From positions 248,001 to 312,000 of the forward strand of contig JBPGPT010000006.1 of NCBI GenBank assembly GCA_051047955.1: DNA of 64,000 nucleotides. Reading direction: 5' to 3'. Below, piece after piece: positions 19,948-63,746 of the stretch. This stretch comes from Cystobasidiomycetes sp. EMM_F5 (Eukaryota). A program made the translations under genes and the position numbers. Positions within the stretch are counted from its first letter, which is position 1; each line of letters starts with the position of its first letter. The notes below the pieces were generated by a model. It ran no database searches. It was given only the letters and a program-made list of their open reading frames with translations, and had not been told where the DNA came from.

Positions 19948-20707
19948 TCAGGTGATTACCGGCACTCTTATACTCGATATCAACAGTCCTCCAGCCATTT
20001 CGGTAAAGGGATTTGGATGGCTCGCAGACACCCTACACACCAACAACATCCCTCAAGCGCTCACCGCCCTTAAGTAGACGTCAAGGTCGCCTTGCGAGAG
20101 ATCTGCATCGCAAACAGGTTCCGATATCAACGCCACTTTACACGTCCATTCACAGCCAGAAGGAATCTGCAAAGCTGCATTTTCAGTGACGTCGCAAGTC
20201 TACAGAGCTCAATTCCTGTGAATGGTCATCCTGGACGCATAGCTTGGTCGTCAATGTGCTTGGAAAAATGGTCACTTCGCTGCAACTTCTTGTCGACGAG
20301 GAAGAGGCCAGGCTGCAATTCGGCAGCGCAAATCATATCCAACATGATCCCTACGTGTTGGAGAGACCGCTGGAGCGCACCAATCGTGTCAGTCTAGTCC
20401 CATTGAGTCTGAGGCAGACCCGTGACTAATTCCGTCCATTCACATCTTCCTCCCTGACATGCCGCTGGCTTTGTTTTGCTTGGGGTGCGCATGCCCATTC
20501 ACGACGATGCACACTTATTCCCAAATATGACAATTTTAATCTGTGCGTGCGATTGGCGATATGTCCCTGCATTCCTCGATCAACGCAAACGACGCAAAAT
20601 AACCAACCCGCTGCCACGACGGGACATAATGCGACTGTCGTCAAATCAATCGCTGATGACTGACTCTGCGTGACCTTTACGCATTCGGACGCCGTCTGAC
20701 ACAAATC

Positions 20708-23700
20708 ATGGCCACTGCCGCCGGGAAACCGCGACTGCTGCCGCAACGTCGCTCAACGCGTGACCGGATGCGAAATGTTGGCGAAACTGCTGCGATGACC
20801 ACAAACGGCGCTGCTGCGATACGTATGTCGGCTCTGGCGTCTGCATCAACACCCAATCTCGCCGTATCGACGCACGCTCACGTCCTGCAGTACTCCAAGT
20901 CGGTTGAGAGAATCAACATGACTGATGTCGGCGGTAGGGTCGGGCCAATCAACCGTATGGGCAAAGTAGACCTAACGGATCCCTGGGGAGAAGCATGGGC
21001 AGTAGATTCACCGTACGACGCGTCGCTGGCGTACTCTGCTAATCCAGCAAGGATGGCTTCAAGACAGTCGGCCTATTTCTATCCGGACCGTGAGATCCCA
21101 TCACCTTCCTCTTTGGTGGGATCCGCCCTCCCGTCACCATCTTCGCATATATTGCAAACGCCTTCAGCAAATACATCATCTCCTGCACTCTCTGGTGCGT
21201 CCAGCATTACTGCCTCCTCGACAATCAGCTTTCAGGCACAGCAGCCGTGGTCGGAGGCATCTAGCGCCACTTCGGCGGGTTCAAGCGAGATTGCGTTTGC
21301 GCAACTCAAGGGAGATGATCCGACGTCGGCGGAGGGTACATCTTTGATGCCATTGCGGGCCAATGGCGTCCCTTTGCAGTCCGCCCTTTCCCAAAATACA
21401 GGAAATTCGAAACGTAGAAGCGTATCGTTTCATGGCAATCTCGCTGCTCTGGCCGAACATTACGGCCCGTCAGGTTCATCTTCGTCCCGTTCGCTGTATG
21501 ACCGTCCCCGGTCAGAGTATGCCGGCTCCCCGTCCTTTTCTCGCGCTCGCTCGTCTAGCCATCTTTCAAGTCAGTCGCGGCAAAGAGGCATCGAGAGCAG
21601 CCTCATGTTGCCCCGCCCATCAAGTTCGAATCGCGGAGGCGACTTTGACATCATGGCTCGACGCCAGTCCATCGCGTCATTGGTCGCCAATGAGCTTCCC
21701 CCTGTACCCATAGACCCGCGAGTGCTTGCAAAACAGCAAAAGCGCAGTGGTGGCGCTGGGAAAAGCCCTTTGTCAACTACGATGACTGCATCGAATTCTC
21801 TGTTGGGACCAGCAAAAAATGCCGGAGATAATGCTAGCATTATGTCTAGCAGCCGCTTTAGTCAGATCTCCGTCGCTTCTACCACAAGGCGGAAATCAAC
21901 CTTCGCGTGGCTGGGCCGCGCTCCGTCGCAGAACGACATCCAAGGTGGCGCTATCGCCAAACCAGCCCTCAGTACAGATAGCAAACCGCTTCCCACACGG
22001 GCATATACGACCCCAGCTCCGACGCAAGTGACCCACAGTCCATCAAAATCTACACCACCCTCACCGAGCAAGTCTAACGCGCGATCTGCCCGTCTTACCA
22101 CCGCACCGCCAGTTCCACCTATGCCACAGTCGTCGACCTTACTGCAGCCATCATCTCAAACCCAGCAACAGCGTGTGTCGCCGTCACGTACAGCTTCTGC
22201 CTTGTCACAGGCATCCATGGGTACACCAAGCCTCTTATCTGTGCAAACGAGCTCGACAGGGGCAACTTCTTTACCATCAACCTCGTCCTATAATTCTATG
22301 GCTGCCGTTGACAGTAAACTTGTGGAACAATCGCGTCAAGCCTATGGCATTACTCGTTCTCCGCCTTCAGCTCTTCCTCCGAGTCAGACTGACACAACAA
22401 GCAGGGAATTTCTCGACCACAGCGCAAACAGTCCAGCGAATGTCCACAATGCATCATCACCCGCTCCTGCGCCAGCTCTTGTGGGAGAAAGTGCTCCACA
22501 ATTGCCAACTCTGAAATCATTAATGGATCTGTCGGCCGTACGAGCCGCTGAGGCAACTTCGAGCCCAGGGCCAGATGTCACGCGTACGCCGCAACCTAAA
22601 ACCTCTTTGAACAGTCTCAGCAATAAGCGGCAGTCCGCCGTACCGCCAAGAAGCTCGTCGTTGAAATCGTTATCGAGCATAGCCGATGACCACGCCAGAC
22701 CTGCATCTAGCGTGGATACTGGCCCGCGTCCGTATATTCCGCCAAATAGCCACAAGCTGTCATCATTTCCCTCGTCATTCGCGTCCAAGAATACACAGAC
22801 CGCTTTCGAGCAAGCGGAAATTGTGCAATCGCATCCTCCACCCAGGAGGAGCACGAACGGTGCGACACTTCCGCAGGTCGTTGAGGAAAAGTTGCAAATG
22901 TCCAAACAGGCAATGAGACCCGTGGTAGTCGAGCAATGCCGGTACTATCCCTCTTCCGCCGGCGAGGACCTACAGCGGAACGGCATGGTTTCATCAGCTT
23001 CAGTCAACTCGCTTCAGGCAATCGACGTTCCACTCCCCGCTTCGCCAGAGCCTATTCGTCCGGACTCAGTCAACTCCATTACTTCTGCGATGCTAAACGT
23101 CCGAACCAGCTCGCTTGCGACCGCGCGCCGAGACGACAAACTTGGAGATCAGGCAACCAGCACCTACAATGATGCAGCTTCGCGAAATTCCAATTCTGGT
23201 TCACTTCACAGCGCATCTACAGTCCGCCCGCCGCAAATGCTGCAGGTAGAAACGCGAAGTGTTGAACACGAGCAACGTAAGTTCAGCGTTACAGCTGATT
23301 TAAAACAATCTGACATTGTCGTTCATGTCGTCAGTCCGAGCGCGTGCATCATCTCCCAACTTGCGACCGTCAAAAGCTGGTTCGGCGACTCCGTCTGTAG
23401 CACCTAAAGTCATCGTGGAGCCATCTGGCAAAGCATTGCCCAAGCCTTCGAAGACACCGTTCAGCTTTTTCAAGCGCAATCGTTCAAAGACGATCGGCGA
23501 AACTTCGAAAACACAGCAGCATTCCAAAACTGCAGTACCATCTGTTCCGGCTGTCTCCACCCCACCCCTCTCCTTTTCGTCCTCGAGCACATCGACAGCA
23601 TCGCGTTCCGTTGCATCTGAACAGTTTTACGCAGAGTTTAGTCCGCCCTCGATTTCTCAGGCTACTCGCAAGCTGGAACGTTCGCGTCAGAGCACATTCA

Positions 23701-26398: not shown

Positions 26399-29106
26399 CT
26401 ACTCCGACCAGCTTTTACACCATTTCGCCAAGTGCTGCGGAATATTCTTACGCGACTTGACAGCTTCATCTATCATGAAAGGCCACGGAGATAGCTTGAG
26501 CGGACGATACACAGCAGCTGCTCCGCTTACGGCTTTACTGTTTGTAGAGGCATCTCTCAAGAGCTTGACTTTGATCAAATGTTCGAACGCCTGCAAGATT
26601 GAAGCTTTCAGAGACTGTAGCTGCCTTTAAGCTTAAAGACTGACCTTGAGGCATACCGCTCGAGAGAATGGTCGGCTTTGGCTCAGACCGCTCGCTGCTA
26701 TTCCTTTGGAGTGAGCTGAGTAGCGCTCGTACGCAATGACGAAGTTCAGGGGCCGTTCCTCCTCAACGACGTGCTTAGCGGCAATGAGCATCGCAACTTC
26801 GACAGTGCTTAAACCGTAAGGTATTGATCTCTCGACCGCTTGCAGGTATGGCGCAAACTGATTTGGTGATAGAGTCAGCGCCTCAGTCGAGACCGGCTTG
26901 TCAGTCTTGCAGATGGCGAATCGTAGGTTTGCAGTCATGGAGAGCTACAATTCGGATCCGCAGGTCAGCTAGTACCCTTTTTGACGGTAGTATATTTACC
27001 AGAATGTCGAAAAGCCTTCGATCTGCATCGAGACCACGCAGGTCGTTCATGCTGACAAGACCCATCTTGACGCTTTTGTCTTGGAAGAAGTGCTGCAGCG
27101 CATAACAATGTCAACCGAGTGTGATAAGTGTACATGCTCAAACGCACGTTCACGCAAGCATTCCACTCTGGGATCAGATCAGGATGTGTGCCCGCAGCTT
27201 CGTTCTGCAGCATCGCGCGGCGAGCCGTGTCGACCGTATTTGCAAAGATATCTTCAGCAGGCATGATGTGATGCACCCGGCTTTGACAGCGACTTTTGAC
27301 TCGCTTTTCCAGAGTTTCGATGCAGTCCTTTATACGCGAAAGCTGCTTGTCAGTCTGGTTTACACATACCGGCGAGGCCTGGCAGCTCACAGCTCGAGCA
27401 CTGACGCCCAATACCGCCATGCCTCCCCGTCTAAAGCCACCTTGTACACAATCTAGCAGGCAGTACAGAAAACTTTGACGCACGGAATGATGTGCGAACA
27501 GATCAAATTCGTCAATGACGATAATGAGAGGCTTCGCCTTGTTTGCAGTGTCTCTGCTATCCTCGGTAGTGCCGGGTTCCAGGATGGCCAAAAGCGAGGA
27601 CAGGATGTTTGCGGCTGACGTCTTTGCGCATCTGACACGTCAGCAATACGTCTGGTAGCTCCTCTTGCCTATCCGACTTACGAAAGAGACGGCATTCTCT
27701 CCGTTTTCTTCATCGTCTATGCAGACGGAAGAGCAGAGTTGTCGCGCAAGCTCTTTGAGAGCACTCTTGTCGTCCCGTTGTATAAGGCCGGAGAGCCTCA
27801 CGACAAGCATGCTGTCCTTTCCGTATACCGTTTGAAGTGTCGACAAACTGCGTTCGACTATCGCTGTCTTGCCAATGCCGCGCTCTCCGATGAGAAGGAG
27901 GCAATTGCCCTCGCCATCGCGGATTGTACGATCAAACGTACTGCGCACATCCCTTTCCGCTATCTCATGATTTGATGATAAGCACGACTGTTTGCTTAGC
28001 CAGGTACGATATTGACTATTGCTCGGTTCCGGTGCACGGCCACCTGAGATCGAAGCTACGGGACTGGCAAGATTGCGTAAAACAGTGTCCAGGAGTGTAA
28101 TCACCGCTTTGACACTGTGTGTGCGCGGAACATTGGGTCGCTCGGGAGTAGATGCAGGTGTCGGCATGAAAATCGGGGATGTCTTGTTGGCTGTCGTTAC
28201 GGTAAGCTCAGTAGTCGATTGTGAGTCCCAAGCCCTGTTGGTGGCCTTATCGGATTCGTTGATATCGGATGGTACATCCCCTGACGTTGCGAGTTCCCTC
28301 TGTGTTCGTCTGCGGCTCGCAGCAGAACGTATAGTAGCAGGTGACGATGGAACAGGCTTGGATGTAGACGTAGACGGAGCAGGAGAAGGCAGTAATGTAA
28401 GTCCAGCAGCTGATGGGCGAGATTTGGCGTCATTGCTACCTTCACGCGAATCGAGCGCTTCTTCAGAAGTTTGTTTCTGCGATGATATGATGTCGCGAGA
28501 TGATCGAACAGGCTCATGATGCTCTGAGAGTATCGTGCGCTTCGAGCGCGTTGCAGTCGCCGGTTCGGCGCGTACGACGACGGGAACAGGAGGGAGGTCG
28601 TCCCCATCATCCAGAGATCTCGCTTTGGAGGACGTCGCGCCCGAAACAAGATCTTTGATGTTGTTGCGAGTTCTGCTACTGATCTTGCCTTTGCTGAACC
28701 CGCCGACTGGCTTTATTCGGGTATGTGTAGAGTTTCCCAGTTCAATAGCTCGGGTCGCGGACGAAGGGCGCAGACCTAGTTCGTCAGCATCGTCACTGTC
28801 TTCGTCCACATCTTTACTCCTAGTAGACACGCGAAGTGTACAATTTGTCCGAGTCGTGGGCGTTGACAATCTGGGGCCATGACGGTCGCCAGGCTTGGGC
28901 GTGTCAATCTTTGTCGGCAGTCTCCGAGGGCCAACGGCGCCGTTGATGTGACTTTCTAAACCATGCGAAGCTCGAACTTGCTTTGACGCGGAGCTGCTAA
29001 GGTGAGAAGACCTCGACGACGAGATCTTGATCCGCTTCGAAGGTGGTGTGCCATTGGCAGCATCAACGGGGGCGCGCTTGGCTGATGAGCGCGTTGAAGA
29101 TGGCAT
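26399..29106 (-). CDS. ORC4: Origin recognition complex subunit 4 (AAA+), long disordered N-terminus, multi-exon
   Basis: GEGNCLLLIGERGIGKT (Walker A), IVIDEFDLFA (Walker B), RQSFLYCLLD, LEKRVKSRCQSR. Confidence 0.93.
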
Positions 29107-29330
29107 AGCTACAGCATGCGAGTCAGATACGAGCAGAGTATGAAGTGACCCAGCAATGGCAAGGCGACCAGAAAAGCTGGGTCGCTCATAATCTCGTCGC
29201 GTCAATTTGCCCCTATGTTTGGAAAACGAGCTACATGTACAGGAAGCGCAAAGACCTGTTTCACTTTTGCTTTTACTGCTTCATTACCACTGTCGAGCTA
29301 CATGACCCCGATTCCTCCTCCCGAAACGCC

Positions 29331-53684: not shown

Positions 53685-55387
53685 ATGCAGCCGTCGCCGT
53701 CAAAGAAGCTCTACGCCTTCAAGCCGTCTCCGAGGACGTTTGTTTCTACGGCTCCGAGCTGTCCGAGGTGTGACAAGGTATACTGTAGAGCATATTGCTG
53801 GATGGGCTACTGGCTGACAGGTTATCACAGTCAGTGTACGCCGCAGAACAGGTGCTGGGTCCCGGTGGCCGGGTGCGTCATGGGTCGCTTGATAGTCAGA
53901 TCAAGAAGACTGAAGTGAAGCATTAACTAGGAATATCACAAACCATGCCTGCTCTGCGTGTCGTGCAAGAAGACTGTAGGACCGGGTTCGTTCGAGGAGC
54001 ATGAGGGTGATGTACGCGTGCCGGACAGTGGTGTGCAGTACGCCCTTCTGAGTCGAGATTACTCTTCCTAGCCCTACTGCAAGCATTGCTACTCCAAGAC
54101 GTTTGGTCCGAAAGGTTGGCAGACGAAGCCGTCGCATTTTACAATAACTATGCTGATTGATTGTTTCCCGATAAACAAGGATACGGACACGGCGGAGCGA
54201 TGACGGGAGAATACCACGATCCACTGCTCGCACTCTCTTCGAGGAATAGCGGATCACCTTACGGTTCACCTGCACGCACAGCTGCTCAAACCCACCGAAC
54301 CAGTAACTCTCTTTCATCAATGCGCCCGCCAGATTCTCCATCCCGCTCGGGGTCATCGGCAGTCGATAGAATCTTACGGAGAGGGAGTTCAGACCAAGAT
54401 GATGATGACCTTGATGATGATCTGAGGCACATACCGACATCGCGTGACTCGCCAGTGCAAGTTGTGCCATCGAACTCTGCGCAGAGTACGGCGGACAGAA
54501 CGGCACAAATAGCAAGCAGCGAGAAGAGATCCATTGAGAGTCCTCTGTCGCTGTTCGACAGAGCACAGCACGAACAGCAAGAATCGGCATCGAGGGATGG
54601 CGGACAGGAAGCAGAGTACGAACAAGTACAAAAATCCGTGAATACTGTGGATTCCGTTACATCAGCCATGGGCTCGGCGTCTATTTCCAGACCGACAAGT
54701 CAGCGTCCGTCCTCTCCGCTGAAGCAGGAAACAACGCCCGGCCTAGCGGCTCGACGACCTTTGCCTGTCCCGCCTCCAAAGCCGGCATTCATGAGTCAAG
54801 CAGCGTCCGCTGCTCCTCCCCCTCCTCCACGATCCATCAGTCCCACATCATCAGTTGGGAGCGGGTCGACAGCGCCATACTCTGCGAGTGGGAGCGGAAG
54901 TTCCTCGTCACATCCTCCTGCTCCACGGACTGGAGTAGGCATAAACTCAAATCTGGGAATCATAGGTGCAGCTGGACCAGATATGTGCAAACGATGTGGC
55001 ACGACTGTGTACTTTGCAGAAAAGATTGTGGCTGGGGGGCATAAGTGAGTCCACACGTTGAACTATTGTAGGTCGTAAGCTGATATACTGGATAGATGGC
55101 ATAAACGATGTCTAAGGTGTGCTACATGCTCGCGAGCGCTAGACTCGCATATGCTCGAGAGGGAGAATCTACCGTGAGTCGTACTAATGTGCGGTTTCAG
55201 AAATATACGACTGACGCTGTAAGATTCGGCATTATCCTCCATGTTCACCTTGCAGATACTGCAAGAAATGCTATGATGAACAATTTGGAGTTCGCGCTGC
55301 TGGATATGTTCTTGTCCGTAAATCTGCTCTGTGCCTGCGAATTAACACTGATAATGCATTCCGCTGCAGAGACCTGCTCTGCATTGA
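53685..55387 (+). CDS. Two-LIM-domain protein (CRP-like) with Ser/Pro-rich linker, multi-exon
   Basis: CPRCDK|SVYAAE…YHKPCLLCVSC…PYCKHCY…FGPKGYGHGG; CKRCGTTVYFAE…WHKRCLRCATC…YCKKCY. Confidence 0.9.
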
Positions 55388-55820: not shown

Positions 55821-56669
55821 ATGTCTGGTTGGAATCTCAACGGCGCGCAGAGCCAGCCACCGACTACAGGTTATCGTACGCCTACTCCACCTTCTCCCCG
55901 CATAATTACGCGGTCCCTTCCGACGAGCAGATCTGACAGCGGTTTAATCCGCCAGTTCACTAATTCTTCTATTGACACATCTTATACCCCAATGATCAGC
56001 GTGACACGTGCATCCTCGAGTTCAGGCAGTCGACCGGCTTCCAGCAATTCTCGGAGGGCAGCAGGTCTATCGATGATCCGTACTGCCAGTCCGGCACCCA
56101 GCAGTCCAGCCCACCTGACGGTGGCGCCGAGAGCTGCAGACCCAACTAACACCACTCAGCGTAATGTCACGGCCATACAAGGTCCATCGCTACAGACGAC
56201 TTCCAGCAACGCGGCTCAGGGTCCACAATCGTCAGCAATCTTTGTGCAACCAGCTACTTGGGGCCCAACGCAAACGTATTTCGCTGGTCCTTCGTTTACG
56301 AGTCCTTATCGCCCCCAAATACCTGCAAGGGGCCCTCCGCCAGGACTGTCGATAAACACCGCTAGCCAGACTGCCCGGGAAACGAATCCCTCTGACTTTA
56401 CGATCTACCTAATTATTGAGAAGACACTCGGCTCTAAATATACGGCGACTCTGCGTCGAGGGCTAGGATCTCTGCCACTGAGAACCACGGCTCGGGTTAA
56501 ATCGGATTTGATGGTCTTAGCGCAAGGGCTTCACCCAGCCGACAAGACTGTTGCAGATCTGACGAAGCTTGGCAAGAACTCTGCCACTTATGCGAAATTT
56601 GACCCAGGCGAATGGGGCATGGATACACAGGGCAAGATATGCTGGTTGCTCGAGGATAAATTCTGGTAA
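55821..56669 (+). CDS. Array copy A: S/T/P-rich N-terminus + one copy of the unknown PGxW/CW domain
   Basis: Single ORF; C-terminal FTIYLIIEK…LMVLAQGL…TYAKFDPGEWGMDTQGKICWLLEDKFW. Confidence 0.75.
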   Translation: MSGWNLNGAQSQPPTTGYRTPTPPSPRIITRSLPTSRSDSGLIRQFTNSSIDTSYTPMISVTRASSSSGSRPASSNSRRAAGLSMIRTASPAPSSPAHLTVAPRAADPTNTTQRNVTAIQGPSLQTTSSNAAQGPQSSAIFVQPATWGPTQTYFAGPSFTSPYRPQIPARGPPPGLSINTASQTARETNPSDFTIYLIIEKTLGSKYTATLRRGLGSLPLRTTARVKSDLMVLAQGLHPADKTVADLTKLGKNSATYAKFDPGEWGMDTQGKICWLLEDKFW

Positions 56670-56928
56670 TAGCCAGCACATTCGCTCGCGCGATGACACC
56701 GACTTTCGCATTGGTATAGCTTCATGTAGTTTATACGCATCACGTAGTGTACGACAAGGTTGGCGAGGCTGTCGGAATGTAGACTTTTCGGCTCAAGTTC
56801 GAGGCTACAGATGATCGCGGAGAATGTACCCCTGGTATGCTCGTGATACTCGGCCCTGATGCTTTATCCAGTAGCAAAGTTCTTCGCACTGCTAGCTTTT
56901 GGGCTATTTGGAGGCCGGGACAGACTGC

Positions 56929-57256
56929 ATGGCGACTGCTCAATCTGCAGCCGCTACCCATCCAGAGGCACGCGCGCGCTACCCACAGCACGCTACTCTG
57001 GTGGTTTTGACGCAGTTCAGCGGTCAATTGTTCATAGGCGTCCGATACCCTCCGACTATGTCCATCTTGAGACCGTCGCCAGGCCAGCGCCAGCGGTTAG
57101 TGGAGATTGCACAGGGACTGACCCCGGATCGTGAGGAAGTGCGCCGCGTCAATAGTGGGAATACCGACACGATCATCTATCGCCAGATAGCACCCGGGCA
57201 ATGGGCCGAGAACGCCAATCGAAGTATGCTGGATATCTAGCGACATATTATATTGA
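56929..57256 (+). pseudogene. Array copy B: single unknown domain with a frameshift near 57223
   Basis: …NTDTIIYRQIAPGQWAENANR then, one base on, GTA TGC TGG ATA TCT AGC GAC = VCWISSDILY*. Confidence 0.65.
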
Positions 57257-57562
57257 CAGTGTCGCCAGCCCCTCCAGTGTAGTGGTCGCCGGCTACGTCT
57301 TGTACGCTAGTATGAGCAAAGCGCAAAGTGACACATGTTCTGCGCCGCTTGCCAGACCCTCCAAAGTGACTTCATCGACAGTGTTGATTCTAGGTGTCCG
57401 ACAAAGATGCAGAAGATTATGAGGAAGGGAGGATTGGAGATGAAGTCGCCAGCTTCGATAGTCGCCAGAGGTAGGTTGGAGTGGGATTGTATTCTCAAGT
57501 TATGCAAAAACTTTCCCCCGCCATCTTTAGCTTGATATAATCTGGCGTCCCGCCGGCAGTGA

Positions 57563-57907
57563 TTATTCGTCGGCATCATCATCTTCGTCGCTGCCATCTT
57601 GCTCATCGTTTTCGTTGTTGCCGTTTGCCCTGATGTTTCGTCGCTGCTCTTGTGCCAACTTGGCGGCCTCGACCTCTTTGAGCTTCTCAGCTTCTCCGAT
57701 GGCGTCCTTCCACTGCGTCAGTATCCCATTCATGACTGATCTGGCGGAGTCGAGTGCATTTGGCAGGTCTGACTGCTTGGGTACTGGGATGACTTGGGTC
57801 GACGACCGAGTAGCCGCCAATTCTGGAGTTACTGATGCGCCAGCTGGAATGGCAATGGTGTACGATATCCGGATGCTGCGATTGGTCGATGCATCGCTGC
57901 TGGACAT
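57563..57907 (-). CDS. Small acidic-tailed protein, probable EKC/KEOPS subunit Gon7-like
   Basis: IRISYTI…LPNALDSARSVMNGILTQWKDAIG…DEDDDADE resembles basidiomycete Gon7-like proteins (recall, not searched). Confidence 0.55.
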   Translation of the reverse strand: MSSSDASTNRSIRISYTIAIPAGASVTPELAATRSSTQVIPVPKQSDLPNALDSARSVMNGILTQWKDAIGEAEKLKEVEAAKLAQEQRRNIRANGNNENDEQDGSDEDDDADE

Positions 57908-58173
57908 GGCTGATACTGACGTTGGGAAAGCGTTGGTCAAGACGCATCGCCCTGATGTCGCTGCCGGCTGTACTTTTACGGCTGGCGGACATACATGTCT
58001 GACATGCTGATGCACAGTACTGACGCTTTGAATGTACGCCCGGGCAGCCCAGACTATCGACTGGCTCCGTCCGCTTCTGGCTTTCCGCCATTAACGAATA
58101 CCGCAATCGCATTGCGCTCTCAATCTCTTGTCCCTCATATTATATCCTTGCACACTCTGCATCGTTCAAAAGG

Positions 58174-59382
58174 ATGGCGCTGTCGAGGAGCAGCTCTCAG
58201 CCAGCCCTTTCGTTCAGCCGTCGTCGCGGTTCGCTAGACTCCGCAGGCATAGCTACCTTCCCCTCGCCTCATCTCGACTTGCCAGTTCGCCGCTCATCCG
58301 TAAGCGATCTCCGCAAGACTCCAAATTGGGGGAGCCCTCAAACGTCAACGTATCCTTCACGCACACAAACTCCCGTCTCAGCCAGGAGAAACGATCATAG
58401 TTCTACCGGGCCACCATCTCGTCGTGCGTCCATTAGCCAACGGCAGCCTACCCTTACTCAACATCAACGTAGCACATCGCTCACGGGACCCATAACTGCC
58501 AGCGGCAGCCCCGGCACAGCTCCACCTGGCTCCAATTATCCAGACTTTGCTGTCGCTTTAGTACTGTCGGTGTTGTTCGATGGAGCGAAGCAGCTCACCA
58601 TTCGACACTTCTCCAGTCAAAGCGTGTTCGCGAAACCGCGCAGATGTACAGCTACTGTCAATACAGACTTGCAAGCCATAGCTGCACGAATGCCGGACAC
58701 CCACACTGCGGTCATCAGAGCCTCCCGGGAGCTTACTCGTGAGACACTCTTTCGACGGCTTGAGTCGGGTCAATGGGCCACGAATAAATCCAAGCAAGTC
58801 TGCTGGTTCGATTCGACGCCGTCTGGACCCGCGTTGTCTTCGCGTCCCCAGTATACGCTACAACAATCCAAATCGAGCTTACAAAGTCTAAGCTCGGGAC
58901 CGCAGAATTACGCTCCGCAACCACTATCCAAGCCATACCTGCCCTCTGCTGGCTTTCCGCGTCAATCTGTTATTCCCGCACAATCCAGTCAGACAGACCC
59001 CCTTGCTCCCCGTCCAGTTAATATCTTTGGCCCCTTTCCCGCCAACGTATCTAGCACTCCAGCTCCATCTGCCTCAACTCGAGACAACTTCCCCATCCGC
59101 TTGGTGCTCGAACGCTTCGGTAATGAGGAGAAGTTCACGTTGCGTTACATTTCACCCCCGACAGGTCAGCGAGAGCGTTCCCCTTTGGCTTGCACGTCTA
59201 AGATATCGGCCGAGCTGGCTTTGTTGGCCGAGAGTCTCGATCCATCCGACCTGACTGTAAGCGGTCTCCGCAATAGTCCTGGTGGTAGAGGTTTGCGTAC
59301 GTACCGGTACTTGCAACCAGGGCAATGGAAAACGGATAAACACGCAAGGGTGTGCTGGATCTCCTCGGATGCAATTTGGTGA
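58174..59382 (+). CDS. Array copy C: RRxS-rich N-terminus + two copies of the unknown domain; intact
   Basis: 402-aa ORF; domains end LFRRLESGQWATNKSKQVCWF and TYRYLQPGQWKTDKHARVCWISSDAIW. Confidence 0.8.
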   Translation: MALSRSSSQPALSFSRRRGSLDSAGIATFPSPHLDLPVRRSSVSDLRKTPNWGSPQTSTYPSRTQTPVSARRNDHSSTGPPSRRASISQRQPTLTQHQRSTSLTGPITASGSPGTAPPGSNYPDFAVALVLSVLFDGAKQLTIRHFSSQSVFAKPRRCTATVNTDLQAIAARMPDTHTAVIRASRELTRETLFRRLESGQWATNKSKQVCWFDSTPSGPALSSRPQYTLQQSKSSLQSLSSGPQNYAPQPLSKPYLPSAGFPRQSVIPAQSSQTDPLAPRPVNIFGPFPANVSSTPAPSASTRDNFPIRLVLERFGNEEKFTLRYISPPTGQRERSPLACTSKISAELALLAESLDPSDLTVSGLRNSPGGRGLRTYRYLQPGQWKTDKHARVCWISSDAIW

Positions 59383-59684
59383 GCTTTAGAACTGGTCTCG
59401 TGTGCGACTGCATCTACCGCGGGCGCATCAGCGTAGTTGCTCAGATGCGACTCCGCCGCTCGCGTTGAGCATCAGACTCCTGCTTAGAAGCAGGTTCAAA
59501 GACTGGATTATGTCGATGATCGATGATCAACCCCTATAAAGATACTGCTGCTCCAGCAGGAGGGTCGATGGTGTACGATACCTACGGTACCTCACTACTG
59601 TGAGTTACAGATAAAGCATCGCCGAAGTTAAATGCTGATGGGAATGAGGGATGTAGTGACCTGACACTAGTAGAGTGTTAGTGG

Positions 59685-59743
59685 GAATGCATCGCCACGA
59701 TTCTGCTACCCGCTGGAATCGCACGGGCGATGCACAAGTGTGA
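59685..59743 (+). promoter_or_regulatory. Conserved ~59-bp upstream element, copy 1 (ends ~180 bp before copy D ATG; TATAAAA at ~59759)
   Basis: gaatgcatcgcca…cgctggaatcgcacgg…gcacaagtgtga, repeated at 60879-60936. Confidence 0.6.
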
Positions 59744-59921
59744 CATACATTACTGACATATAAAAGCGACGCATCAAAACCTCTGCTGTTCAGATTTTCG
59801 CGATCACACTACTCCGTCCATCTCCCCCAACTGCGATCCCTAAAGTCCACGAAGACGGTAATTGCGTCAATCGTCAGCCTCTCGCTAGCTGGACATCCAC
59901 CTTTTCAACCATCGTCGAAGC

Positions 59922-60596
59922 ATGGCGTTCTTCAGGCGTCTGTCTAACAACGACATGATGCAACAGCGTCGCAAATCGCTACAACCTACAGGCACAACTC
60001 CTTTTCGGTCTGATATTCGTAGCGGTCGCCTCGATATTTACGATCGTCGCTCATCCGAGGTCAATCTACCCTGGACCTCGACCCGGAGGTTTCCCGAGTC
60101 GTCGCGAGGTTCCTCAGGTACAATGAGTCCAGTCTCTGGCGCTCGATACCTGCCCACTACTACTGGCCAATCTACCAATATTGCACAATCCACTGAGATA
60201 AACTCTCGAGTTTCAGGCCCGAGCAACGCCTTCATGCAGCGTGTCAGTTGGGCATTTCGCTCTTCGCCTCCTTCTAACTCGACCCTGGGCGACGTTACTA
60301 TTTGCTTAATGCTCCATCTTCGAGGTGATACGAAGTGGTTCACTTTACAGCGCAACACACCTGGGGGAAAACGGCACAAGAAGCATTCGAAGTCTCCATT
60401 GGCATGCACAGCTGACGTCAAGAATGAGCTAGAGGTATTGGCTGCAAGCCTCGACCTATCTGGAGACAGGGTCAGTCGGATTCGGGAAAGTACCGGTGGT
60501 AGTGGCGAGCGTACGTACGTGAAGTTGTCGCCACAGCAATGGGCAAGGAACCAGCTTGGCGAGGTTGCCTGGCTGTCGCCGGAACCGATCTGGTGA
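59922..60596 (+). CDS. Array copy D: RRxS N-terminus + one unknown domain; intact
   Basis: 224-aa ORF; WFTLQR…SPLACTADVKNELEVLAASL…TYVKLSPQQWARNQLGEVAWLSPEPIW. Confidence 0.8.
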   Translation: MAFFRRLSNNDMMQQRRKSLQPTGTTPFRSDIRSGRLDIYDRRSSEVNLPWTSTRRFPESSRGSSGTMSPVSGARYLPTTTGQSTNIAQSTEINSRVSGPSNAFMQRVSWAFRSSPPSNSTLGDVTICLMLHLRGDTKWFTLQRNTPGGKRHKKHSKSPLACTADVKNELEVLAASLDLSGDRVSRIRESTGGSGERTYVKLSPQQWARNQLGEVAWLSPEPIW

Positions 60597-60878
60597 CCGA
60601 CCGTAGGGCTAGTCCTAAAAGCCCGATGCATCATAGCATTACCATACATTTCTGCTGAGAGTGCGGCTCAGCGCTCGTATTGCAGAAGCAGTCTCTTGCA
60701 TGGATGCATGACTGGAGCTACTCAAGTAATCTCCAGGTATGCTGTCACTACCGCTCCAGCTAGATTGGCCATCGTGGGCAATGCCCGATACTGCGATAGG
60801 CAAGGATGCGTCGCTGATAACGACTCGCTGACGGGAGTGAGCTGAAATGATCATCTGAAATCGTTGGAAAGGCGGTGA

Positions 60879-60936
60879 GAATGCATCGCCATGTGTCGTT
60901 CCTCGCTGGAATCGCACGGCCGACGCACAAGTGTGA
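60879..60936 (+). promoter_or_regulatory. Conserved upstream element, copy 2 (ends ~167 bp before copy E ATG)
   Basis: Same three blocks as 59685-59743. Confidence 0.6.
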
Positions 60937-61102
60937 GTGAAATGCAGACGGACACTACTCGCTTCAATTAGTCCCCGCCTCTCTCTAACTACTCCAACTG
61001 CAGGCCGTGTTTGTCCGTCTCTCGACTAGCAGCTGTCGTCACGTTGGCTCCCTCCCACTGACCGAGCATCACTATCTGTTCGCAACCTCCATCGTCACAC
61101 AG

Positions 61103-62332
61103 ATGACGCTCGCTCGACCCTCTAGACGTCTGTCCGATAGCAATCTTCCGTCAGGTGGCCCTCCCTTCTCGCTAAACACAAAGAATGAAAGGCATTATTT
61201 CGATGCTACGTATCGCCGCTCTTCCGAAGTCAATCTGCCTTGGGCGTTAAAGCGGTCGACTCCTCAGTCGTCGCAACCCCCGTCACGGAGAGCGACTCCT
61301 ACTGCAGCCGCGAGCAAGTCTTATAGCAACGAAGAAGCTAACTTGCGCCGCCAGTCTGACAGCGGTTTTTCCGTGCAGAGCCAGTCGCCAATTGTTTATG
61401 CCCAACCGAAAACCCCGCCGCGTGGCCCTCAGAATCCACATCATCTTCCTAACGTGGCAGCCTCCAAACAGGCTAGCAATGTCGGCTCCACCCTTGCATC
61501 GACCACATACCCAACATTTGCGGTTGCTGTCGTATTGAGGGTGGAAAGGCACGGAACAAAGCACCTAACGATTCGCAACTTCAGTAAAGAGAAGCGTTTT
61601 GCCGCACCGCGCATGTGCACAGCCGAAATTTCTACACAGTTATCAGTTCTAGCTCAGCAAGTACCCCTCACCGATCGAGCAGTTGAAGAAGCGACTAGGA
61701 CGGCTGATTTGGCTCTGTTTCGAACACTTGAGGCGGGTGATTGGGGGTTAAATCAGTCTTTCCAAGTTTGCTTTGTCAACTTCGCGCCGAAACGCCCCCC
61801 GACTTACCTGCGCCTACACCATGAAGCCCGATGGTCGAGCACAAGCTTACAGACAAGGACAGGTCCGCAACGCGATTTACAAGCATTGGTCGGGGCACAC
61901 TCGTCCATCGCTGCCAACGCACCCCGGAGTATCGAACCAACGCGAGGTATTCCGGCAGCCTCAAGAATACAACGCTTGCCAGCCACGATTAGTGAGCTAC
62001 CCGTTCAGGTATCTCGCACTTCGGCTTTGTCTGCCACCAACACAGCCTCAACCGAAGGTACATGCCTTATCCGCCTAGTATTAGAACGTTTCGATGGAAA
62101 GGAGGAATTTACCTTACGATATCCTCTGCCTGGGAAAGGTTATCGTGAACGTCCCCCTATACTGTGCACAGAAAACATCTCGCGGGAGCTGGCTCGACTG
62201 GCCGAGAGTCTCACATCATCCGATAAAATCGTGAGCGCTCTTCGGCAAAGGCCTGGTAGCAGAGGCCTCTGTACGTATCGGCGATTGCTGCCGGAAGAAT
62301 GGAAGATGGACATGAACAAGATCGTTTGCTGA
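61103..62332 (+). CDS. Array copy E: two unknown domains, close paralogue of C; TGA at the terminal conserved Trp
   Basis: YPTFAVAVVL…LFRTLEAGDW…VCF; IRLVLERFDGKEEFTLRY…TYRRLLPEEWKMDMNKIVC*ISPDSLR*. Confidence 0.78.
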   Translation: MTLARPSRRLSDSNLPSGGPPFSLNTKNERHYFDATYRRSSEVNLPWALKRSTPQSSQPPSRRATPTAAASKSYSNEEANLRRQSDSGFSVQSQSPIVYAQPKTPPRGPQNPHHLPNVAASKQASNVGSTLASTTYPTFAVAVVLRVERHGTKHLTIRNFSKEKRFAAPRMCTAEISTQLSVLAQQVPLTDRAVEEATRTADLALFRTLEAGDWGLNQSFQVCFVNFAPKRPPTYLRLHHEARWSSTSLQTRTGPQRDLQALVGAHSSIAANAPRSIEPTRGIPAASRIQRLPATISELPVQVSRTSALSATNTASTEGTCLIRLVLERFDGKEEFTLRYPLPGKGYRERPPILCTENISRELARLAESLTSSDKIVSALRQRPGSRGLCTYRRLLPEEWKMDMNKIVC

Positions 62333-62675
62333 ATTTCTCCGGATTCACTCCGGTAATCGACAATTTTTCAGCGTGCATCTGGTCAGACGCTTATTACGCT
62401 GCAATATCGACGTTGATGTCGTTTCACGACCAAGACGCGGTACTTGCGCCTACTTTCAGAGTAAGACAGCTTTACATGATAGGACCCTCGAAATGAAAGA
62501 ATAAGTCGCGGCTATGCTTGCTACACTGTTGACACAGCTTGTTGCTATCCTTTCTTTTAACGTATCGCAAGGGGCCAGTGCACTAACGGTAGGCTTGCAT
62601 CACGGATGGTCTCTAATCCACAATTTAATCCAAATCAAATCAGTACCACCACTTGCTATCATATCATCATTTACC

Positions 62676-63746
62676 ATGTCCGGCGCCCGGCGACGTCTCT
62701 CCGCCGACAATATACTTCTGCGAGGAAGAGTCCCCTACACTACGGATGCCGACTCTCGAAGGTCTAGTATGAGCAGTACTGTCTCTTCATCCGGCTCTAC
62801 TACTCTGGCACTCCAACGACCCCACAGATCGCAAAGCGTGAGCGAACGACAGATGCCAGTCTGGCAAACGAACCGTCCGCCGTCTTCGACGCCGAGTGTG
62901 CGGCGCGGTTACGGTACTTACGGGGCAATCCATCGATTCCCCATGTTTACCGTTACAATCGTGCTTCATTGGAATCAGTATGGTGACGTTTCGGCGGTTG
63001 TGCTGCCAAATGTCAACGATGTAAATCTGTATTCGCAAGACATCGAGATAGTACAGGCAGATGCTCTAAAGATAGGCCTGGAGTTTTTAGTCAATATTGT
63101 GTTGGCGGGGGATAAGCGCAGGACCACTTCGGGCAACACCATCATATTCCGTTATGTAAGACCCGGTCATTGGGCAAAGGATTCGTCTGACAGGATCTGC
63201 TGGATATCGCAAGAAGCTATAGGAGACCCGACGGTACTGAGCAAAGGCACAGCGGCCCATGCTGTAGTCGGGTCTCAACCCACGATCGCACTCTCGACAA
63301 CATCACAAAAGCTACCATCGTCTCAAACATATGGCGGAAGTCAGCATGCGCGGCCTACTGTTGTCATACCGGGACCTAAGCCTAGGCGTTCCAAACATAC
63401 CCAGCCTTCTACTGACTACTGGCCCCCGCATGCTCTAAGGCTGCTGTTGAGTCTCGCAGTGGGTGGTCATTGGCGATTCACGCTCCACAATATGCAGACG
63501 CAAGGTAGCAAGCAAGCGAGCGTTCCTATTTGCACAGACGAGCTGTATAAAGAACTTCAGAAACTTGCCAACACAGTGGGCACATCGAATACAACCGTTG
63601 CAAAACAACTCATCTCCAAACGATAACAGGACGGCAGCAGTGGATTGCAAACACTTGAGTACTGTGTAATTAATCCGGGCATGTGGAGCACCAATCAAAT
63701 TGGTCAAGTGCAGTGGATCAATAACAGTGCTATTCCACTATATTAA
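62676..63746 (+). pseudogene. Array copy F: two unknown domains, second interrupted by in-frame TAA (63624-63626)
   Basis: Frame continues after TAA as QDGSSGLQTLEYCVINPGMWSTNQIGQVQWINNSAIPLY*, completing the motif. Confidence 0.65.

Follow-up and report, generated by a model that had tools for sequence, protein, structure and literature searches.

The window analysed here is a 64,000-nucleotide stretch of Cystobasidiomycetes sp. EMM_F5 (contig JBPGPT010000006.1, positions 248,001 to 312,000, forward strand), and all positions below are counted from its first letter. At 55821-63746, on the + strand, it carries six loci, named A to F, which together hold nine copies of a domain of ~95 amino acids (aa). 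The nine copies are homologous to each other, and the duplicates are ancient and under purifying selection. We suggest, with a confidence that we would put at about even, that five open genes and the relic B constitute an old family of restricted taxonomic range, whose products are intracellular binding proteins, probably regulated by phosphorylation. An earlier note on this DNA, made from the letters alone, had described six + strand open reading frames (ORFs) and nine copies of one shared domain, and both observations hold: all six ORF starts exist on the + strand, and all nine spans translate to the motifs given for the domain.

The domain follows the pattern of a hydrophobic strand, FTL/LTI-R, P-x-x-CT, a helix L-x-x-LA-x-x-L and a final (Y/F)-R-x-L-x-PG-x-W ... 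V-C-W. The seven uninterrupted copies were aligned and turned into a profile, with which all 1596 six-frame fragments of the 64-kb window were searched; the profile recovers its seven training copies, and independently finds the copy of locus B (E 7.4e-6) as well as the first and second halves of the second domain of gene F, F2 (E 1.2e-6 and 8.1e-5). The next best fragment has an E-value of 0.83, and the window thus contains no further copy. When each of the seven copies was scored against a profile of the other six, values of 22.8-102 bits were obtained, vs 2.5-8.2 bits for the best of 200 shuffles per copy. Pairwise BLASTP of 10 segments connects 28 of the 45 pairs at E <= 1e-3, in what is a small database. 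The profile, the leave-one-out scores and BLASTP all agree, and the alignment and hidden Markov model (HMM) that had been proposed as a check bear the claim out, with segments that align far above shuffles. Identity between paralogues ranges from 20 to 60%; the closest domain pairs by BLASTP are C2/E2 (61%), C1/E1 (49%) and C2/D (42%). The two cysteines of the motif, in P-x-x-CT and in CW, are part of the pattern as described, but neither is invariant: the first is absent in A and F1, the second in D. Since each of these semi-conserved cysteines is missing in some copies, an obligatory metal site or disulfide is unlikely.

The genes differ in length and in domain number. Gene A (55821-56669) encodes 282 aa, with a basic, S/T/P-rich disordered region of 190 aa that lacks RRx[ST] motifs, followed by one domain at 56391-56666; this domain scores 104.8 bits with the window profile and 50.8 bits when left out of it, and the codon score is above zero in this frame only. 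Locus B has an ORF of 103 aa (56929-57240) which consists of the domain only (56977-57256). Gene C (58174-59382, 402 aa) begins with a disordered region containing RRGS, RRSS and RRAS, and has two domains, C1 (58534-58812, 110.4 bits) and C2 (59086-59379, 131.1 bits), separated by a 91-aa linker. Gene D (59922-60596) is the shortest of the five open genes at 224 aa; its disordered N-terminal region contains RRLS, RRKS and RRSS, and its single domain lies at 60288-60593 (118.9 bits). Gene E has an ORF at 61103-62332 (409 aa), an N-terminal region with RRLS, RRSS, RRAT and RRQS, and two domains joined by a linker, E1 (61505-61783, 107.1 bits) and E2 (62063-62329, 107.6 bits). Gene F (ORF 62676-63626, 316 aa) has RRLS and RRSS in its N-terminal region, a divergent domain F1 (62934-63221, 98.3 bits), a linker, and F2 (63417-63746). 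The disordered S/T/P/R-rich region that had been attributed to every ORF is thus found in A, C, D, E and F, and not in B. The description of the locus as a tandem array is likewise correct for the six loci, with the amendment that an unrelated minus-strand ORF (57563-57907) breaks the array up between B and C.

For gene F, an in-frame ATG is also found upstream at 62514, which would give a protein of 370 aa. The additional 54 residues (62514-62675) have a mildly hydrophobic start, and the codon score of the extension equals that of the core (0.05); yet the paralogues align from the ATG at 62676.

The ORFs have the properties of constrained coding sequence. Codon log-likelihoods, with seven housekeeping exons of the window as training set, are positive for the five open genes (A, C, D, E and F) in the ORF frame (0.03-0.08), whereas the two remaining frames and the reverse strand score negatively; the housekeeping exons score 0.09-0.23, but were themselves used for training. 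By the Nei-Gojobori method, synonymous divergence (dS) is 1.4-1.8, i.e. saturated, even in the closest pairs, and the ratios of nonsynonymous to synonymous divergence (dN/dS) are therefore rough. For the domains these ratios are 0.21 (C2/E2), 0.38 (C1/E1) and 0.27 (C2/D), for the disordered parts 0.26-0.45, giving an overall span of 0.21-0.45. ORFs of 224-409 aa have remained open despite saturated synonymous change and dN/dS is below 1, so the genes are coding and constrained; saturated dS together with dN/dS of 0.21-0.45 means that the copies are old and have been under purifying selection. The description of the family as fast-evolving is therefore not upheld: synonymous sites are saturated even in the closest pairs, and the dN/dS calculation that had been proposed as a check gives values well below 1 in domains and tails.

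Not all copies have survived intact. Six of the nine are whole, one is trimmed (E2) and two are broken (B and F2). In B, a frameshift near 57205-57215 separates 'PGQW' from 'EVCWISSDIL', which is read in the following frame, and the locus is a relic pseudogene. The stop codon of E2 (TGA, 62330-62332) falls where the paralogues have the W of 'CW', and the old frame runs for eight codons further to a second stop at 62354-62356. F2 is interrupted in mid-domain by an in-frame TAA (63624-63626), after which the remainder is in frame and recognisable up to 63746. Repeat-induced point mutation (RIP) as the origin of these stop codons is not supported: with a TpA/ApT ratio of 0.78 and a GC content of 0.53, there is no RIP signature.

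The spacers between the genes retain traces of how the array grew. The coding regions barely align as DNA, the sole exception being C2/E2 with 66% identity over 216 nucleotides (nt). A stretch of 41 nt in the 5' portion of the minus-strand ORF (57827-57867) has a minus-strand relic in the C-D spacer, at 59540-59580 (repeat family D1), with 80% identity and a blastn E-value of 1.3e-4; this relic translates to VSYTIDPPAGAAVS, vs ISYTIAIPAGASVT in the minus-strand ORF. A third, weaker copy (66% identity) lies in the D-E spacer at 60743-60783. In addition, a 63-nt element is found ~170-240 nt upstream of the start codons of both D (59681-59743) and E (60875-60936), on the + strand, with 84% identity and a blastn E-value of 9.5e-13 (repeat family D2), and there is a weaker counterpart 5' of C. 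From the relics and the upstream element it follows that the duplicated unit comprised a + strand gene, its promoter and the start of the divergent neighbour, and the array expanded through segmental tandem duplication of that unit, of which C, D and E carry traces. Conservation of the 63-nt element exceeds that of synonymous sites, which points either to a cis element with a function or to gene conversion. In a tree of the domains, C1 and E1 group at 91/95 support and D and F2 at 86/90, while four of the six inner branches are without resolution and several branches are long; by the C1/E1 grouping and the 61% identity of C2 and E2, C and E are whole-gene duplicates of a two-domain ancestor. 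A repeat search found no transposon-like repeats in the array. Birth-and-death evolution, as the earlier note had proposed, is supported by the relic B, the truncated E2 and F2, and the fragments of promoter and neighbouring gene duplicated into the spacers.

The whole proteins A, C, D, E and F are strongly basic, with isoelectric points (pI) of 10.3-10.9, and six of the seven domains have a pI of 8.8-9.9. Tails and linkers contain 13-22% Ser, 7-19% Pro and 4-15% Arg, and 16-24% hydrophobic residues. No membrane helix was found: the maximal Kyte-Doolittle mean over 19 residues is 0.61-1.61, and the peaks fall on strands and helices of the domains. The N-termini are polar and basic (MALSRSSS, MTLARPSRR, MAFFRRLS, MSGARRRLS, MSGWNLNG), and none looks like the start of a signal peptide, as judged without a dedicated predictor. 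Hydropathy and N-terminal composition thus agree with the original statement that signal peptides and transmembrane helices are lacking. With no signal-peptide-like start and at most two semi-conserved cysteines per domain, the proteins also do not resemble secreted effectors or killer toxins.

The tails do contain a recurring motif. R-R-x-S/T is the consensus of protein kinase A (PKA) and related basophilic (AGC) kinases, and it is present in the tails of C to F: their N-terminal regions have 12 RRx[ST] matches against 1.8 expected, a number reached by none of 2000 shuffles. Two short motifs are kept in alignment in the C, D, E and F tails, an N-terminal RR(x)LS/RRGS and, ~28-42 residues in, D-x3-RRSS.

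AlphaFold2 (AF2) was given a seven-row alignment with the A domain as first row and a nine-row alignment with C2 as first row; the best models reached a predicted local distance difference test (pLDDT) score of 87.3 for the A domain and 84.4 for C2, with a predicted template modelling (pTM) score of 0.73 in both cases. The two models agree on an order of strand-strand-helix-helix-strand-strand-strand-short helix, and we consider the fold plausible. Foldseek against the PDB gave best E-values of 0.34 and 0.60 for the two models, and a structure search of BFVD gave 0.38. Among the top weak structural matches, entries of the ATP-grasp type recur for both models; the likeness to the ATP-grasp C-terminal subdomain, a two-layer alpha/beta sandwich, consists of an antiparallel sheet with helices on one face. 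On paper, the order of elements (two strands, two helices, three strands) also resembles that of PAS-like, longin/profilin-like and AP2/integrase-arm folds. A lead towards lambda-integrase arm-type/AP2-like domains from the Protein Atlas (0.90, 2 of 30 matches, 89 of 256 shared features) was not reproduced with C1 and was dropped; neither PF09003 nor PF02920 has a Pfam match at E <= 1. Otherwise the Protein Atlas returned weak bacterial clusters at 0.91, and no usable named match for C1. A predicted homodimer of two C2 copies scored 0.00, a value obtained without controls which speaks neither for nor against self-association.

Searches for relatives returned the family itself. In Pfam-A, the five proteins and the upstream neighbour (six proteins in total) have no family at E <= 1, and NCBIfam and PADLOC give matches for none of the five proteins; the best match of the domain profile to PDB sequences has an E-value of 0.7. 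A word-based search with C among 5.8 billion clusters found only C itself and E. An exhaustive HMM search of 1.84 billion representatives gave seven matches at E <= 0.001. Of these, five are proteins of the window itself (A, C, D, E and F); the remaining pair (E 6.9e-5 and 1e-4), long proteins with internal repeats that match in three to four weak stretches, was judged spurious. In metagenome contigs, the three closest domains as query gave 231 pattern matches and COG7 as a synteny query gave 57, with no relative among either. In the literature on Cystobasidiomycetes gene families and on orphan or tandem genes of Pucciniomycotina, no such family appears among the matches listed. The family was thus rightly called unrecognised, with nothing in Pfam at E <= 1 and no match to a characterised family.

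Whether it is lineage-specific is a separate matter, and depends on how close the sampled genomes are. For a bleomycin-hydrolase exon of the window, identity is 66% with a metagenome protein, 64% with a genome bin of the Cyphobasidiales and 63% with Cystobasidium minutum, and at most ~51% with all other fungi among the matches listed. The organism is therefore a Pucciniomycotina yeast in the vicinity of Cystobasidium and the Cyphobasidiales, and the searched collections contain no close relative of it. The searched protein library includes proteins of both Cystobasidium minutum and the Cyphobasidiales bin; the family is therefore absent or undetectable there. Since a conserved enzyme has only 63-64% identity and the paralogues 20-60%, divergence beyond detection is a live alternative to true absence. 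The label 'lineage-specific' accordingly stands in so far as the only credible matches are the window's own proteins; it is weakened by the distance of the nearest named genomes, in which homologues could go undetected.

Each protein has a disordered N-terminal tail rich in Ser, Thr, Pro and Arg, and after it one or two of the ~95-aa domains, which are predicted to be alpha+beta. The folded basic domain may act as a binding module for protein or nucleic acid, while the tail would be regulatory, its two positionally conserved RRxS sites being phosphorylated by a basophilic (PKA/AGC-type) kinase. The paralogues would then serve as signal-regulated adaptors that have diversified, and not as enzymes or toxins. 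In a stronger form of this proposal, which we regard as rather doubtful, the module would be a truly new fold and domain family that arose in the Cystobasidiomycete lineage and is kept by purifying selection, the proteins serving as kinase-regulated adaptors that tune lineage-specific signalling or nucleic-acid binding. Several observations weigh against our interpretation. Damage in three of the nine domain copies fits a relaxed need for at least some members, and the poor sampling of the lineage weakens the absence of homologues as an argument. F1 is acidic (pI 6.07), and a basic pI alone is no proof of nucleic-acid binding; the evidence for the RRxS sites is motif matching between paralogues, which are not independent of each other, and gene A has none. 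As to the fold, only two of five AF2 models were confident in each run (pLDDT 87/81/59/55/55 and 84/72/60/56/55), and the alignments consisted of 7 and 9 paralogues from a single genome, so that the fold may be wrong.

We give a modest chance to the explanation that the domain belongs to a known family or fold from which it has strongly diverged, such as a small alpha/beta sandwich of the PAS-like, longin/profilin-like or AP2/integrase-arm type, and that it looks like an orphan only through poor sampling and limited search tools; with the nearest named relatives at 63-64% in a conserved enzyme, a divergent domain could indeed escape HMM searches. The rival view that follows the earlier note is that the array serves in genetic conflict or non-self recognition, as a drive, immunity or incompatibility system, and evolves fast by birth and death. 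One pseudogene and two truncated copies in a tandem array, highly divergent paralogues (20-60% identity) and no homologue found beyond this genome are what such a system might leave, but the saturated dS and the dN/dS of 0.21-0.45 describe duplicates that are old and constrained, not recently diversified. Furthermore, the Pfam and PADLOC searches bring up no conflict-type domain, whether HET, NACHT, nuclease, kinase or toxin; compared with HET and NLR proteins, the five proteins, at 224-409 aa, consist of a tail and one or two small domains, with no HET, NACHT/NB-ARC or repeat sensor domain in Pfam. The array is free of transposon-like repeats and of a RIP signature, and it is flanked by housekeeping genes (COG7, SWIB, UAA transporter, bleomycin hydrolase). 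We thus consider a conflict system unlikely.

It is very improbable that the array is non-functional, that is, a set of decaying duplicates or of ORFs that are not real genes. A frameshift or premature stop in three of nine domain copies would fit such decay, as would codon scores of 0.03-0.08 that lie under the 0.09-0.23 of the housekeeping exons (the training set). Against this, five ORFs of 224-409 aa remain open despite saturated synonymous sites, with dN/dS well below 1 and a frame-specific codon signal in all five; short motifs are kept in otherwise divergent tails, and the domain is modelled confidently in two of five AF2 models per run.

Housekeeping ORFs in the window that flank the array match COG7, SWIB, a UAA nucleotide-sugar transporter and bleomycin hydrolase, and a phenol hydroxylase match is also found among the neighbouring ORFs. 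Directly upstream, a 282-aa S/P-rich ORF at 54200-55048 (+) ends in a Cys-rich stretch, CKRCGTTVYFAEK, that may be LIM-like; Pfam gave no match on this exon, and the gene probably continues past an intron. The minus-strand ORF at 57563-57907 (114 aa) has an acidic C-terminal tail and the top codon score of the region, 0.322. It has no Pfam match above noise and no PDB sequence match; its layout may resemble that of small KEOPS Gon7-like proteins. Further away, ~26 kb from the array, a 546-aa frame at 27640-29280 (-) has weak matches to AAA_16 and AAA_22, both under the Pfam cut-offs, and may belong to a gene of the STAND/NTPase type. No Pfam family matches the 915-aa frame at 20660-23407 (+), and its relatives are only weak; among the named ones Cystobasidium minutum comes out best (E 6e-12). 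This is a further gene of the lineage with poor conservation.

Should the domain prove new, a protein family, and perhaps also a fold, would be added from a class of basidiomycete yeasts that has barely been sampled; the array would also be a clean case of an old orphan family under purifying selection whose growth is still legible from relics in its spacers. Lineage-restricted tandem families of unexplained function are common in fungi, and with relatives this distant, missing homologues are unsurprising. The practical value of the array is as a target for structure determination and, when genomes of nearer relatives become available, for comparative genomics.

Fungal conflict loci, among them HET/NLR incompatibility genes, Spok and the wtf drivers, are multi-copy and lineage-restricted and show birth-and-death turnover, and in all three respects the array is like them. 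It differs from HET/NLR and Spok loci in that HET, NACHT/NB-ARC and the Spok nuclease/kinase have no Pfam match here, from the wtf drivers in that its proteins are without multiple membrane helices, and from conflict loci in general in that there is no overall rapid protein evolution. With substrates of basophilic (PKA/AGC) kinases, C, D, E and F share aligned RRLS-type and D-x3-RRSS sites in a disordered Ser/Arg-rich tail, although the likeness here is one of motif match alone and gene A is without the motifs. In organisation the array also resembles the taxonomically restricted (orphan) tandem families of fungi: these likewise have no detectable outside homologue, form tandem arrays with a mix of intact, truncated and dead members, and combine a disordered region with a small folded domain. 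In contrast to such families, the copies described here are not young but ancient and constrained, with saturated dS and dN/dS of 0.21-0.45; their domain is modelled with confidence, and the unit that was duplicated also carried the promoter and the 5' end of a neighbouring gene.

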